From Promethearchaeota archaeon (lineage in GTDB: Archaea > Asgardarchaeota > Lokiarchaeia > Sigyniarchaeales > SOKP01): a stretch of DNA of 64,000 bases. The position numbers were made by a program, and so were the translations under genes. The notes below the pieces were generated by a model. The model did no database searches and was not told where the DNA came from. It worked only from the letters and a program-made list of their open reading frames with translations. Shown here in pieces: positions 739 to 6,039 of the stretch (position 1 is its first letter; the number at the start of each line of letters is the position of its first letter). The stretch spans positions 128,001-192,000 of the forward strand of contig JAUVNS010000008.1 of NCBI GenBank assembly GCA_030599585.1, read 5' to 3'.

Positions 739-776
739 AGTAAAGTAAAACATAAATATTGGTTCCAACTTTTAAC

Positions 777-830
777 CAAAACAAAACAAAACAAAACAAA
801 AAAACAAAACAAAACAAAATCAAAACAAAA
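777..830 (-). repeat. (CAAAA)n microsatellite, about 10 copies; U-rich (TTTTG)n on minus strand, probable terminator of the micro-ORF transcript
   Basis: caaaacaaaacaaaacaaaacaaaaaaacaaaacaaaacaaaatcaaaacaaaa. Archaeal intrinsic terminators are oligo-U tracts; the terminator role is inferred. Confidence 0.7.
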
Positions 831-963
831 TCTCTGCTTTTGCATTCGTTCGCGATTGGTTTATCATTTTAGAAGAGATTTTATTTCCCCATCTGAATCT
901 CTTATTAAAAAATTGGTTGTAATTCTAAAAATAAAGTGGTTTAAAAATAGTTAAAAAAAATAA

Positions 964-1038
964 TTAATATCTTAATGTTGTAATATGATATCTCGTCGGG
1001 TTTAGGATTGTTTGGGTATCCATTTCTTTTCTTTTCAT
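964..1038 (-). CDS. Micro-ORF C, 24 aa: MKRKEMDTQTILNPTRYHITTLRY
   Basis: ATG at 1038, TAA at 966-964. AAGGT SD-like motif at 1051-1047, 8 nt upstream (accaAGGTAAAAgcatATG). Confidence 0.55.
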   Translation of the reverse strand: MKRKEMDTQTILNPTRYHITTLRY

Positions 1039-1154
1039 ATGCTTTTACCTTGGTTTTTTAATATGGTTTTTTAATTATGTGTAGTATTTGTCGTTAAATC
1101 GCAATTTTTTATTGTTATTAGGTTATTATTATAGAAAAAATGTGTTAATTACAT

Positions 1155-1226
1155 TTACATATCAAAACGGTCAGGAAAATATCCGCCGTTTCTGATGATT
1201 ATCGTTCTTTTCTCGCTATTTTTCAT
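1155..1226 (-). CDS. Micro-ORF B, 23 aa: MKNSEKRTIIIRNGGYFPDRFDM
   Basis: ATG at 1226, TAA at 1157-1155. GAGGT SD 8 nt upstream (gcGAGGTAAAAAAAAATG). Confidence 0.6.
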   Translation of the reverse strand: MKNSEKRTIIIRNGGYFPDRFDM

Positions 1227-1309
1227 TTTTTTTTACCTCGCTTTTTTTTTGGGTTTTGTTTATTTTCTTTTTTGGTTATTGGTGGAAAAATTATTAAAAA
1301 AAATTATTT

Positions 1310-1384
1310 CTAAAATCTTAAAACTAAATTTTCAGGATTGAAGTTTTTCGCAAATCTAACTTCTTTTATTTCGGTTCTTTCCAT
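1310..1384 (-). CDS. Micro-ORF A, 24 aa: MERTEIKEVRFAKNFNPENLVLRF
   Basis: ATG at 1384, TAG at 1312-1310. Strong AGGAGGT SD at 1400-1394, 9 nt upstream. Confidence 0.65.
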   Translation of the reverse strand: MERTEIKEVRFAKNFNPENLVLRF

Positions 1385-1457
1385 GATTTTTTTACCTCCT
1401 TTTTTTGGTTTTTTTTTTTTTTTTAATTCCTGGTGTTTTATTTTTAAAATTTTTTAA

Positions 1458-1745
1458 TTAAAAATTGATTAGATTATTTCTATATGCCAAAATTCTCGTA
1501 TCAAGGTTCGCATTCACAGCGTTTATGCATTTGACTTCCTCGTTAATTTTCGCATTTAATTTAACTTTATTGAACACTTTCCTAAGTTTCTTTTTAATCG
1601 ATTGTGATTCAAGTTTTTCAGTCGTAGCCTTCCTGACCAGCACCTGAGGCCGTAGCACCTCAGGTGCTTGGAGTTGGAAAGGAACCTGGCTATCGATGCT
1701 GGCGCTTTTTTCCTCTGCTTGTTTTTTTATTGTTGCTTGAGCCAT
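1458..1745 (-). CDS. Small basic hypothetical protein, 95 aa (MAQATIKKQ...YRNNLINF); first gene of the micro-ORF array
   Basis: ORF track 1458..1757. ATG at 1745 is preceded by the SD-like AGGATGTGA and a long A-rich leader. No recognisable family. Confidence 0.6.
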   Translation of the reverse strand: MAQATIKKQAEEKSASIDSQVPFQLQAPEVLRPQVLVRKATTEKLESQSIKKKLRKVFNKVKLNAKINEEVKCINAVNANLDTRILAYRNNLINF

Positions 1746-1811
1746 TTTTCTTATCACATCCTTTTTTTTTTTTTTCAGTTTTCTTTTTTTTGTTTCTAAT
1801 TTTATTTAGTT

Positions 1812-1888
1812 CCGAAGTTTAATATAGTTTGACTTCTTGAAGTTCGAACGAACTTCGAACTTCGGTGCGAATCGCAAACCTTAAATAC
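1812..1888. promoter_or_regulatory. Divergent promoter region with inverted-repeat operator GAAGTTCGAA-N5-TTCGAACTTC
   Basis: Perfect 10-bp arms at 1839-1848 and 1854-1863. Additional GAAGTT/AACTTC half-sites (CCGAAGTT 1812-1819 vs AACTTCGG 1858-1865). Minus-strand TATA-like TATATTAAA near 1818-1826; plus-strand aaaccTTAAATA at 1877-1887. Confidence 0.6.
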
Positions 1889-1909
1889 CTACAAGACCAT
1901 AATATAACT

Positions 1910-4876
1910 ATGAGTATAACAAAATATCCACCTGAAGGTATAATTACACCTATGAAAATCAACAAAGATTTTGAATATATTATACTCTGGATGCTCTATA
2001 ACAACGATCACTGCACTTGGTCTGAATTTAAGTCAAAACCTGTAAACATTAGTCCAGCGACATTATCAAAATACTTGAATATTTTGATAAGTAACGGTCT
2101 TATTGAGAAGGAAAAGAAAGGAGAGTATAGGATTACCCCTGAAGGTCGGATACAATATGCGGAGTTACAGGTTAAAGGCTCATTGGAGAAATCTCTGAAT
2201 TATCCTCCTGAGATTATAACAAAAACTAGGGAATATGATCATTGGATTCTCTGGATGCTTTATAATAATGCGTATTGTAAGTGGTCCGATTTTATTGAAC
2301 CCCCTCTTTCAATCAATCAATCTTCATTATCAAAAAACCTGAATCTTTTATTAGATAAAGATCTCATTGAAAAAAATAATCGTGAGTATAGAGTTACAAG
2401 GGACGGTGAAATAGAGTACTTCAAAGTGTTAAAAACATATGATTTAGATCGCCAATCAATATTGGACGAAGAAAGCAAAAGAGTTGAAGTCATTACAGAT
2501 AAGGTTGGCAAATTCTTTGACGAATACAAGATAGAAGATGATGAGATTAGATATCGTTTCTTGAACATGGTCTTAAGGTTAGATTATACTAAGGTTGAGG
2601 CTACTTTGTCAGACGAGGTAGATTTTGATAAAATTTTGTTATTTTTATCGATAAATCACCCTAACAATTATCCTAATTATATTACAGCAAAAGATTTTGC
2701 GTTAGAGTATGATATAAAGCTAACAACATTGGACTTTTTTATAGAAAAAATCGTGGAAGATAAACTTTACGCGATTAAATTCTTTAAATTAAATGTTGAC
2801 AGTAAAATTACATATTACATCCAAGCTGAAGAAAGATTAGAAAAAATGTTAGGCGTAATCATTGAAGACTATATTAGGAAGTTCACATATTTGAGTAAGT
2901 TTCAGAAAAAAAATGGAGATCAATATCAAACGCCTGATATCAACCAATTACTCTACAATGTCCTAGAAGATTTATGTAATAATCTATTCAATGAAGGATT
3001 GAAACAGCCACTCAGGAAATTTTTAATCGAATATATTGAACATTTAGCATATAAATTTGAAACAGAGAAGAGTTTAATTAACCATACAGATAAAATAAAG
3101 GGGATTGCGTTTCAAAATGTGTTTGAAGTAATACAAAGCTTTGGAACATCGGAGACGGTGAATACGATAAGCACCCCTCCTGATAATGAATCCTTTTACT
3201 TTTTGCACAATAGAATTTTTGACACATTGGACATACTGTATTTATCGAAAATAGATTATATTCGAACCGCTGAGTTCAAAGAGACATATTTTCCGAAAAA
3301 TGGAGAATTTTTAACGAAGATTGAGCGTAAATTGGCGAAAGGAAGAGTATTGAAAGTAAACGAACTGCTTACTGCTAATCTTAAGAATCTAAGCGAAATA
3401 GAATTGATGATCCTGAAGGATTTAATTTACACATATAACGGAGAATTAGAAGAGTCACTAAACCTAACAAAAGAAATCATAGAAGCTCATCCTAACGAAT
3501 ATGTAGGGTATCTTTTTCAAGCCATTTCATATTTTTTTATGGGAAGATTCAAGGAAGCGTTGGATATTATCGAATTAGGTTTGAACATGTCCTATAATGT
3601 CTTGTTGATCTCTCAAAAAGCGCAAATTCTCATTAATTCCGATCACAAAAAAGCACTTGAAGTCGTAGATGAAGTTATTGAAGATTATCCAGATAATTTC
3701 GCTTTAGCACGCACGAAATTTCTAATTGAAATGACGGATAAAGAATGCTGCATACGAAATATTGACGAACCTTTGAATTTGATAAATTCACTTATAAGCT
3801 CGAATCCTGACGATTCAGAACTCTCAATACTAAAAGCGATATTATACATTGTGACCAATAAGTATAAGGAAGCAAAAAACTGGATTAAACAGACCGTAGA
3901 ATTCAATTTACTTAAAGGTAGTCCGAGAGTTGATACTGCTGCGTACTTAATACTATCATATTCATATTTAGCTAGGGGTAAATTTGAAAAGGCTTTAGAT
4001 ATTGTCAGCAAAGTCAGATTTCACTATCCAAATCACCCACTTTCACATATTATTACTGGTTTAGTTCACGGATTCAACATAGTCTACAAATTCGATCCAA
4101 GTAAAGCAAACAAAGAGCTATTTAGAGAAGAATTTCAGAAAGCAGAAGCAAATGAACAGAGTAAGAAGAAGTTGTCTAGGTATTATCAACTGGAAAGTTA
4201 TATTTTGAATGAGATAGATGGTCTTGAAGAGGCAATAAAAGTAATCGATAAAGCAATTAAATTAAGTCCGGAGCACTACGATATTCATAGCACAAAAGCC
4301 CATCTATATTTAGCCTATAGCGATAAAGGAGAAGAAGTTTTAGCATTTTACGATGAATTATTAGAGAAATTCCCTACTGAAGATAAAAGCATTCGCCAGA
4401 TGAAATCATTCTCTTATTTTGCGATGGGAAATGTAACAGAAGGAATTAAAATTCTTAAAGAAGGTCTTAAAGTTTACCCTGATGCGATAGGAATGTTAAA
4501 CAACCTCGCCGTATTCTTAAGTGATACAGGAAAATTTGAAGAAGCTTTGGAGACAATTGAAAAAGCTATTGAAATTGACCCACTCGAAGCAAATCTATAC
4601 GATACATACGGAGAAATATTAATGTTTGGTAAGGATTACAAATCAGCTATAGAAAAATTTTATCAAGCGTTAGAGATGAGTCCAACGGGATGGTTTAGGT
4701 TTCATACATTCTTAAAACTCTCGAAATGTTATCAAAGTCTAGGAATGCTTGAGGAAGCTACAACCTGCCACGATAAAGCAAAAATTTTAACGGAAAAAGT
4801 TATACCTGGAAAAAGAAAGGTATATTTAGATCAATTAGAAGCGAGTTTTGAAGATTTAACCACTTCTGAAAAGTAA
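1910..4876 (+). CDS. Large regulator: two tandem N-terminal winged-HTH (MarR/ArsR-like) repeats plus C-terminal TPR array
   Basis: Internal duplication YPP..I..(F/Y)..ILWMLYNN..C.WS.F...P..I....LSK.LN.L....LIEK....Y..T.(E/D)G, present twice. C-terminal TPRs such as LNNLAVFLSDTGKFEEALETIEKAIEIDP and YDTYGEILMFGKDYKSAIEKFYQALEMSP. Start moved to ATG 1910, about 22 nt after the TATA-like box (leaderless-type spacing). Confidence 0.85.
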   Translation: MSITKYPPEGIITPMKINKDFEYIILWMLYNNDHCTWSEFKSKPVNISPATLSKYLNILISNGLIEKEKKGEYRITPEGRIQYAELQVKGSLEKSLNYPPEIITKTREYDHWILWMLYNNAYCKWSDFIEPPLSINQSSLSKNLNLLLDKDLIEKNNREYRVTRDGEIEYFKVLKTYDLDRQSILDEESKRVEVITDKVGKFFDEYKIEDDEIRYRFLNMVLRLDYTKVEATLSDEVDFDKILLFLSINHPNNYPNYITAKDFALEYDIKLTTLDFFIEKIVEDKLYAIKFFKLNVDSKITYYIQAEERLEKMLGVIIEDYIRKFTYLSKFQKKNGDQYQTPDINQLLYNVLEDLCNNLFNEGLKQPLRKFLIEYIEHLAYKFETEKSLINHTDKIKGIAFQNVFEVIQSFGTSETVNTISTPPDNESFYFLHNRIFDTLDILYLSKIDYIRTAEFKETYFPKNGEFLTKIERKLAKGRVLKVNELLTANLKNLSEIELMILKDLIYTYNGELEESLNLTKEIIEAHPNEYVGYLFQAISYFFMGRFKEALDIIELGLNMSYNVLLISQKAQILINSDHKKALEVVDEVIEDYPDNFALARTKFLIEMTDKECCIRNIDEPLNLINSLISSNPDDSELSILKAILYIVTNKYKEAKNWIKQTVEFNLLKGSPRVDTAAYLILSYSYLARGKFEKALDIVSKVRFHYPNHPLSHIITGLVHGFNIVYKFDPSKANKELFREEFQKAEANEQSKKKLSRYYQLESYILNEIDGLEEAIKVIDKAIKLSPEHYDIHSTKAHLYLAYSDKGEEVLAFYDELLEKFPTEDKSIRQMKSFSYFAMGNVTEGIKILKEGLKVYPDAIGMLNNLAVFLSDTGKFEEALETIEKAIEIDPLEANLYDTYGEILMFGKDYKSAIEKFYQALEMSPTGWFRFHTFLKLSKCYQSLGMLEEATTCHDKAKILTEKVIPGKRKVYLDQLEASFEDLTTSEK

Positions 4877-4908: not shown

Positions 4909-6039
4909 TTATTTTTTATGTTCTTTTACGAGTTTTACCAAGTCTGCTTTCCTATAAGAAGCGAGCACTTTAAGATCGTTTTCAATACAATATTCTTTTA
5001 GTTTTTTTACCGTCCACTTGTTATAATCAAGCGGTTGTTCAGTGATTTCTTGAAGGGGTCCACCTCGGATGAGGTTAATAATTTGCGCTTTTCTATAGGA
5101 TGTTGGAACTGAAATGTTGTTTTCTTTGCAGTATAGTTTCAATTTCTTTACTGTCCAGGAATTGTAGTCTATTTCGTCTTTCTCTTCTATAATTTTTTCT
5201 TCAATTTTGGAAGTATCAAGTTTTTGGAGAATTTCTATTCCCTCAATACTACCAGAATTGGAATCAACATAGAGTCTTATAGTTCGATCTTTAAGTTCAA
5301 TTGGTCCTTCTGGTATTGAACTAACAGGTTCCCATTCGGTTTCCTCTATCTCTTTCCCGAAAACTTTTGCTTTTTTGACTGCTGCTCCGTAAATTTGAAA
5401 ATTCCCTAAAATCAAATTTTGTCTTTTAAAAGTAGCGGGAACTTTGTTTTTCACAATTTTATTAATCAATTTTTTATTATCTAACTTAGGTGGTTTGATT
5501 GTCTGTTGAGGTTTAGGGGCAATGACATAATCCTTCTTTTTTCCAATTAATGTGGATTTAACGTCACCATTAAGAGTCGGAGGTGGACCTTGCCATCCGT
5601 GAACCTTTTTATCTTTAGTTTCTGCAGATTCCTTGAGAGAAGACTGGTGTAAATGTTTAAACTCTATAGAGTTTCTTTCTAAGATTTCAGGAACTTCGGC
5701 TGTTTTAAAATTAAAGGCTCTCATAAATTCGTTGGGTTCATCTCCTTGATCTACTGAAATAATCTTACATCGATGGAAGTGGCTGTTAACAACTAAATCG
5801 TTTTGTAATTCAGCGGCAATCCGAGATGCTATAAATTTTTTCCTGACATGTGAATTGACGCCTTTCCAGATATAGATTCTCCTTAACCCCTCCTTGACAA
5901 TTATTAACACTTGGTTCGGATCTAATACATCTTGACCATTATTCAACAGAAAGGTATCTTCAGAAATATCTAACTTGACTTTTTCTCCGGTACTTTCTAG
6001 TCCAAAGATCATAAAGTTCTCATAAATTTCAGACATCAT
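4909..6039 (-). CDS. Single gelsolin/villin-like domain protein with two C-terminal SAP/HeH-like repeats
   Basis: Gelsolin-like segment VLDPNQVLIIV..RRIYIWKGVNSHVRKKFIA..IISVDQGDEPNEF. C-terminal repeats DYNSWTVKKLKLYCKENNISVPTSYRKAQIINLI and DYNKWTVKKLKEYCIENDLKVLASYRKADLVKLV. Confidence 0.75.
   Translation of the reverse strand: MMSEIYENFMIFGLESTGEKVKLDISEDTFLLNNGQDVLDPNQVLIIVKEGLRRIYIWKGVNSHVRKKFIASRIAAELQNDLVVNSHFHRCKIISVDQGDEPNEFMRAFNFKTAEVPEILERNSIEFKHLHQSSLKESAETKDKKVHGWQGPPPTLNGDVKSTLIGKKKDYVIAPKPQQTIKPPKLDNKKLINKIVKNKVPATFKRQNLILGNFQIYGAAVKKAKVFGKEIEETEWEPVSSIPEGPIELKDRTIRLYVDSNSGSIEGIEILQKLDTSKIEEKIIEEKDEIDYNSWTVKKLKLYCKENNISVPTSYRKAQIINLIRGGPLQEITEQPLDYNKWTVKKLKEYCIENDLKVLASYRKADLVKLVKEHKK

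Follow-up and report, generated by a model that had tools for sequence, protein, structure and literature searches.

A stretch of 64,000 nucleotides from the genome of a Promethearchaeota archaeon (the window; G000:C22:128001-192000, G000 being the genome) carries near its left edge, on the minus strand, three tandem open reading frames (ORFs) of 23-24 codons, A, B and C, which we conclude from sequence comparison to be real, conserved micro-protein genes, predicted to be translated. Each is led by a Shine-Dalgarno (SD) sequence, and together with a preceding gene for a protein of 95 amino acids (aa) they stand divergently from the gene of a regulator in which two winged helix-turn-helix (wHTH) domains are joined to a long array of tetratricopeptide repeats (TPR). 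The whole looks like a previously undescribed regulator and micro-protein circuit, with a putative function that we set out below. The initial annotation had described A, B and C as SD-led micro-peptide genes lying below gene-caller thresholds, and this description is supported by conserved frames, starts, stops and SD sites, conservation being the decisive evidence for their reality. The features of the array, in window positions, are the following.

1458..1745, minus strand: first gene of the cassette, 95 aa, C-terminus NLINF, modelled as a disordered N-terminus and one long helix.
1310..1384, minus strand: micro-gene A, 24 codons and a stop, motif ..[FY]NPxxL[IV]x[RK][FY]-COOH, with a paralogue 2 kb away.
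1155..1226, minus strand: micro-gene B, 23 codons and a stop, basic N-terminus, [KR]xIIIxN.G and an aromatic/acidic C-terminus; the universal member.
1078..1099, minus strand: 22 nt of non-coding DNA in the B-C spacer, with the same sequence in the two G000 arrays and a TATA-like ATTTAA.
964..1038, minus strand: micro-gene C, 24 codons and a stop, motif MKRKEK..ILNPTGY..LR[FY], present in only some cassettes.
777..830, minus strand: (TTTTG)n microsatellite identified by TRF, outside the conserved unit.

The coordinates and translations of the three micro-ORFs and of the 95-aa ORF are exactly those first reported, and the described layout of the units is present in the sequence: SD sites stand 8-9 nt before each ATG (AGGAGGT at 1400-1394 for A, GAGGT within 1241-1235 for B and AAGGT within 1052-1047 for C), and T-tracts follow the stops (T8 at 1303-1296 after A, T6 at 1140-1135 after B and T8 at 960-953 after C). 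All three SDs are complementary to the 3' end of the genome's own 16S rRNA, GGATCACCTCCT. The (TTTTG)n tract, which had been taken as the end of the array, does occur at 830-777 but is no part of it, being missing from a second, paralogous array. The predicted products are small (2.8-3.0 kDa), basic (pI 8.3-10) and hydrophilic (grand average of hydropathy, GRAVY, -0.65 to -1.07), and no hydrophobic h-region or signal-like segment was found in these 23-24 residues, the maximum Kyte-Doolittle value over nine residues being 0.69. In the common pattern of B-type peptides, a basic N-terminus leads into a beta-prone xIIIx run, after which come an N.G turn and a C-terminus rich in aromatic residues; the micro-proteins are probably beta-hairpin-like. 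Of the N-P/F-P turn said to unite the three peptides, a loose resemblance between the three families stands, but only the B type is universal.

Conservation begins within the genome itself. The second A-B-C array (C22:127084-127464) lies 2 kb away, left of the window and downstream of the exonuclease gene that follows the first, and each of its three genes keeps its frame, start, stop and GAGGT site; aligned with each other, the two arrays are 83% identical in the ORFs with zero internal indels, against 63% identity and 44 gapped positions in the spacers. Two further A-B arrays of G000 are more diverged (C34:47716-47931 and C45:4736-4968). In other species, intact A, B and/or C with the same SD were found at all seven loci retrieved through DNA similarity alone, and hence without selection for open frames. 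Profile searches, whose matches are open frames by construction, widened this range: an alignment of the B peptide (profile A1), run on 41 congeners, returned 28 B copies in 17 of them, and a broader profile (A5, E <= 1e-4) returned 50 B-type small open frames in 36 of the 161 Lokiarchaeia genomes of our census set. These belong to two genera of one family, namely the genus of G000 (g1, 20/41) and g22 (15/54), G000 itself being left out of both counts. No A5 match at this threshold was obtained in the other 125 genomes, which thus also serve to check the specificity of a model this short. The A family has 17 members in congeners and the C family nine, the latter with a mean column identity of 77%.

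The pattern of change is that of coding sequence. Length differences within the ORFs are whole codons, stops occur in both alternative sense frames of nearly every member, and 40 of the 41 family members checked (A, B and C) have the SD core ~8 nt ahead of the start codon. Amino-acid similarity exceeds that obtained by placing the same substitutions at random in 96-100% of pairs (mean z 1.6-2.0, the pairs not being mutually independent). In the contig of a close strain, the four substitutions within A and B are two synonymous changes, one K-to-R and one K-to-Q, and every indel falls in the spacers. Two broken copies were found, one interrupted by a TAG (G139) and one C copy frameshifted, occasional pseudogenes of the kind expected for genes.

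The initial annotation had also argued that a matching triplet of SD and ATG was unlikely by chance, and the shuffle check, run on 645 kb of G000 DNA outside long ORFs with 20 Markov-1 resamples and the pattern (GAGGT or GGAGG)-N5-10-ATG followed by 15-40 codons, agrees with that. The genome holds 31 such SD-led small ORFs (sORFs), compared with 5-20 (mean ~11) in the resamples, four chains of two or more (0-1 in resamples) and one chain of three, which appeared in none of the 20 resamples. Ten of the 31 are members of the A, B and C families. The SD itself is unusual here: the 5-mer core precedes only 5-8% of the long ORFs of G000, and SD sequences are rare in Lokiarchaea generally (review, PMC12993045). 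An origin as chance ORFs in AT-rich, low-complexity intergenic DNA can draw on the composition, as 25% GC and A-rich leaders yield AGGT-like words and short ORFs and account for the ~11 SD-led sORFs expected per 645 kb; given the lack of chains of three in the resamples and the distribution of the 50 conserved copies, confined to 36 genomes and missing from the other 125, this extremely improbable explanation is refuted by conservation. Three further candidates were rejected. Pseudogenes or pieces of a split gene would not each show a separate, conserved SD and ATG, as these units do; a miniature inverted-repeat transposable element or other repeat element is opposed by the lack of terminal inverted repeats, and a CRISPR-like array by the fact that the units are not repeats of one another.

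The polycistronic transcription first proposed for the units is not supported. A tract of five or more T, an archaeal terminator signal, follows all A genes (11/11), all C genes (8/8) and about half of the B genes (10/22), and the TATA-like block at 1078-1099 stands between B and C; the units may therefore be partly or wholly monocistronic. No run recorded as RNA contains the locus; two short contigs, covering 995-1248 and 1521-1760, come from a 'metatranscriptomic ChIP-Seq' run, the RNA nature of which is only a guess. The flanks of this block have diverged between the two G000 arrays, GATTTAAC is kept there in other species, and the block is possibly an internal promoter for C. At three loci (L016, L022, L027) a short GC-containing palindrome, e.g. 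ATCACGGTCCCGTGAT, replaces the T-tract downstream of B and might serve either for termination or as a binding site.

The array occupies a 1.2-kb stretch that has a co-directional RNase-H-fold exonuclease-like gene on one side (623 to 3, continuing past the window edge) and the divergent regulator gene on the other, with the following features.

1746..1909, no strand assigned: divergent control region, with GAAGTT/AACTTC half-site repeats at 1863-1814 abutting a TATA-like box at 1828-1819, then an A-rich leader.
1910..4876, plus strand: wHTH-wHTH-middle-TPR regulator, 988 aa, matching Pfam HTH_45/MarR and many TPR families.

The N-terminus of the regulator is similar to archaeal Sso10a-, Lrs14- and MarR-type winged helices. 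Its TPR half was modelled with 27 helices at a predicted local distance difference test score (pLDDT) of 90.6, and its closest PDB matches in Foldseek were OGT, APC/C Cdc16/23/27, Ski3, CTR9 and Tom70. A reading of the locus as a defence system was rejected as unsupported, PADLOC giving only generic wHTH/TPR matches for the regulator. Convergent with the regulator gene lies a gene (4909-6039, minus strand) whose product has gelsolin repeats and, at its C-terminus, two SAP/HeH-like domains.

Scanning upstream of homologous wHTH-wHTH-TPR genes, as had been suggested, revealed conserved SD-led micro-genes at orthologous loci. Regulator orthologues (63-82% identity) occur in 15 of the 42 genomes of the genus; 14 of them have B arrays, and the remaining one lies on a contig that breaks off 250 nt past the 95-aa ORF. 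Other species, as well as genera g22, g23 and g15, have full-length homologues with 38-47% identity, and these diverged homologues likewise face a divergent cassette, made of a 70-79-aa ORF followed by differing SD-led B-type micro-ORFs of 21-29 codons. The cassette was also found beside homologues of 29-34% identity (G102, G114) and beside a shorter paralogue (G144), and two genomes (G014 and G144) have two regulator/cassette pairs each, with different peptides. In total, 33 of the 50 B-type copies are in divergent orientation to a regulator homologue (29-100% identity) and at most ~1.1 kb from its 5' end, six of them in genomes absent from the profile, while fewer than 0.1 such copies would be expected by position alone, a contrast inflated by shared ancestry. 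The order of control elements is the same in both genera: GAAGT/ACTTC repeats, an abutting CTATA[AT]AT, a AAAATTAAG-like element and an A-rich leader. This arrangement has outlasted the divergence of regulators and peptides and the turnover of downstream genes, which argues for functional coupling.

Two types of genomic context were distinguished. In a first survey, type 1 arrays (A-B-C, A-B or B-C) were seen at 12 loci in 12 species, divergent from a wHTH-wHTH-TPR gene and, in 11 loci, downstream of a ~90-aa ORF; the arrangement recurs on metagenomic contigs that were retrieved with the 95-aa protein. The genes downstream of type 1 cassettes vary, encoding a leucine-rich repeat (LRR) protein, MCM and an SMC/AAA_15-like ATPase, or an exonuclease. 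Type 2 arrays (A2-B2) lie in the intergenic region between the genes for the CCA-adding enzyme (cca) and elongation factor 2 (EF-2), as at seven surveyed loci and in the C34 array of G000, or upstream of a GNAT gene. The 95-aa protein belongs to 74 metagenome protein clusters, every one 'hypothetical', and occurs in 11 of 42 genomes of the genus; it had no match in Pfam, NCBIfam or PADLOC, some relatives carry the precomputed tag PF27216, and its AlphaFold2 model has a helix at 35-94 (pLDDT 67). In two genomes (G005, G145) regulator and array remain adjacent with the 95-aa ORF missing. Several g22 cassettes (L089, L091, L092, L096, L082, L086) include one or two extra ORFs of 32-46 aa of the CxxC...CxxC zinc-ribbon type, many ending in FDF and weakly similar to RNA polymerase subunit P and FmdB-type ribbons.

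Close strains differ in the combination of alleles that they carry. Compared with the window, A is 95% and B 60% identical in one strain, and in another A is 59% and B and C are 85-86% identical. Across L042-L049, compared with window positions 964-1745, the alleles of A, B and C recombine independently, yielding mosaic cassettes, and in one metagenomic strain B and C are very similar to their counterparts in the second G000 array. The spacers, with their A-rich, SD and T-tract segments, may act as recombination joints.

In the mechanism that we favour, the 95-aa gene and A, B and C would form one cassette with a promoter abutting the GAAGT repeats, and the divergent tandem-wHTH/TPR protein would most likely bind these repeats and control both the cassette and itself. 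The micro-proteins, above all those of the B type, would be cytoplasmic ligands of the 13-repeat TPR solenoid, and by binding to it they would place cassette expression under a feedback loop. The ligand part of the proposal would explain why regulators that have diverged are each accompanied by a B-type peptide that has diverged too, and it fits the typical behaviour of long TPR solenoids, which bind extended peptides or C-terminal tails. A complex prediction for regulator residues 190-988 with peptide B gave ipSAE values of 0.01 and 0.00, which count neither way, as a partner of <30 aa lies outside the calibration of the score. A regulator-controlled cassette whose micro-proteins are TPR ligands, with both the DNA binding and the peptide binding predicted, is our leading candidate, held tentatively and at somewhat below even likelihood. 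The stronger proposal of an independently arisen archaeal peptide-receptor system, in which each regulator would sense its cognate ~23-aa micro-protein and the shuffling of alleles would create specificity groups, is possible and rather doubtful.

Several observations weigh against our interpretation. dN/dS is ~0.87 between the two G000 arrays (68 codons), with family medians of 0.44-0.69, and the third-position excess is modest; these values lie below 1 but show no strong purifying selection, and on these estimates constraint is weak or partly diversifying. Of the B-type genes, 17 of 50 are not beside a regulator, including the cca/EF-2 A-B arrays, and three genomes (G137, G141, G010) have B genes and no regulator orthologue, indicating that B can function without an adjacent receptor. 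Much of the co-occurrence of regulator and cassette is shared ancestry within two genera, and four shorter regulator paralogues of G000 have no SD-led sORFs upstream. Finally, within G000 the GAAGTTCGAA-type operator occurs at this locus alone, the three other arrays lacking it, which leaves a shared regulon unsupported.

One alternative is that the conserved blocks are non-coding, as small RNA or cis-regulatory DNA, with incidental ORFs. The dN/dS near 1 between the two local arrays would suit this, as would the conservation of some non-coding blocks to the same degree as the ORFs, such as the identical 22 nt at 1099-1078. We nevertheless consider it very improbable: SD, ATG, stop position and length are kept in two genera, indels are in-frame only and substitutions preserve amino-acid similarity, and an RNA function finds no counterpart in folding (z -0.5 to +0.3, no significant structure in the three units) or in Rfam, where there was no relevant match and two sub-threshold ones, to mir-196 and CrcZ, were chance matches. 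A different possibility accepts the micro-proteins and makes them effectors, acting for example on the translation apparatus or as factors in stress or inter-strain competition, with the regulator only switching the cassette on or off upon another signal. It would account for the B-type genes that stand without a regulator in the cca/EF-2 region of eight species and upstream of the GNAT gene, and for the three genomes with B genes and no regulator orthologue; the shuffling of alleles among close strains together with high dN/dS is typical of fast-evolving effector repertoires, and the unusually strong SDs suggest high output. Against this stand the absence of an identifiable target and the confinement of the EF-2 synteny to one genus, where it may be inheritance only, and it leaves unexplained why diverged regulator paralogues keep their own differing B-type peptide. 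We regard an effector role as the main alternative, and still as somewhat unlikely. Leader peptides or upstream ORFs that attenuate a downstream gene, or precursors of ribosomally synthesised and post-translationally modified peptides (RiPPs) or antimicrobials, could be evoked by the T-tracts directly 3' of the ORFs, by three invariant Ile codons in B and by the position of type 2 arrays upstream of EF-2 on the same strand, as well as by the tandem organisation, since arrays of precursors are typical of RiPP loci. The genes downstream of regulator-linked cassettes differ among strains, the entire peptide sequence is conserved beyond codon content, there is no modifying enzyme, protease or exporter conserved nearby and no Cys/Ser/Thr-rich core, all of which makes such a role quite improbable.

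A secreted quorum-sensing system of the RRNPP type, with export, processing, re-import and TPR sensing of the peptide, has to be weighed together with the likeness of the locus to these systems, which are known from Bacillota and phages (Rap-Phr, NprR-NprX, PlcR-PapR, PrgX, AimR-AimP), and to Rgg/SHP. The gene logic fits, as a fusion of DNA-binding and TPR-type domains stands beside tiny peptide genes, adjoining the receptor-like gene in 33 of 50 copies; several receptor/peptide pairs with diverged peptides may coexist in one genome, the shuffling of alleles resembles pherotypes, and SHP peptides are also ~23 aa long. However, the peptides here are hydrophilic and carry no export signal, and no transporter is conserved beside the cassette, neither an Opp-type importer nor an exporter. 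The host is archaeal, the DNA-binding part is a tandem winged helix instead of an XRE-type HTH, and the TPR part is a 13-repeat canonical solenoid like those of OGT, APC/C and Ski3, with no RRNPP receptor in the Foldseek top 50 and no RRNPP-specific family among the Pfam/NCBIfam matches listed for the regulator. The peptide genes are, moreover, divergent from the regulator, arrayed and accompanied by a 70-95-aa helical protein, and peptide binding is here a prediction. A secreted system of this kind thus seems improbable, and the cytoplasmic-ligand mechanism remains our preferred explanation.

Two other classes of known systems offer comparison. TPR proteins that dock C-terminal tails (Hop/Tom70 with EEVD, PEX5 with SKL, APC/C Cdc27 with IR tails) match the fold class of the C-terminal half of the regulator, and every cassette product has at its C-terminus a short conserved motif whose last residue is aromatic or hydrophobic. 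They differ in being eukaryotic scaffolds of chaperone, import and ubiquitin-ligase pathways rather than transcription factors and in recognising other tail motifs, and the corresponding interaction is hypothetical here. Micro-proteins of <50 aa detected by Ribo-seq or peptidomics in bacteria and archaea (e.g. Haloferax, Methanosarcina and E. coli) were likewise unannotated and below gene-caller cut-offs, have their own initiation signals and are often lineage-restricted. The genes described here differ from these in forming tandem, multi-copy arrays of three families, in their strong SD within an SD-poor lineage and in their tie to one regulator family across two genera. Our literature search turned up neither genes of this sort nor systems of the RRNPP type described in archaea, and gave no exception to the initial statement that no such system is known from Asgard archaea.

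From this locus, conserved micro-protein genes in multiple copies emerge as a hidden feature of dozens of genomes, and the canonical SD initiation of these genes in an SD-poor lineage provides a handle on start-site choice by the Lokiarchaeial ribosome. Their tight association with a TPR transcription factor, and with an operator that is itself conserved, makes for a compact, testable circuit of one protein, one operator and three peptides. If the peptides are TPR ligands, peptide-controlled transcription would extend beyond Bacillota to Archaea, and this would be the first peptide-ligand transcription switch, possibly the first peptide signalling, described in Asgard archaea.

Three other sets of short frames were noticed in G000, all outside the window. 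A second, unrelated tandem pair of SD-led micro-ORFs (GGAGGAAAT), of 28 and 25 codons, lies at C28:16292-16611 on the plus strand, with a further copy at C8:13307 on the minus strand; both members of the pair start with M.YNKK, one of them is the member duplicated on another contig, and they may be another hidden micro-gene family. Short 'ORFs' at C24:310898 and C26:76443 (both minus strand) end in ..AF[LM]C[WY]K and a TGA, followed in frame by GYG.., and look less like sORFs than like the N-terminal parts of HdrA/MvhD-like proteins that contain selenocysteine (TGA=Sec). A dispersed repeat, TAGGG..GGAGGGCGAA-ATG, is present in four copies (C23:63359, C9:150154, C32:190476 and C39:3597) and leads into a frame of 19-22 codons (MS..LPKDKNPGR..).

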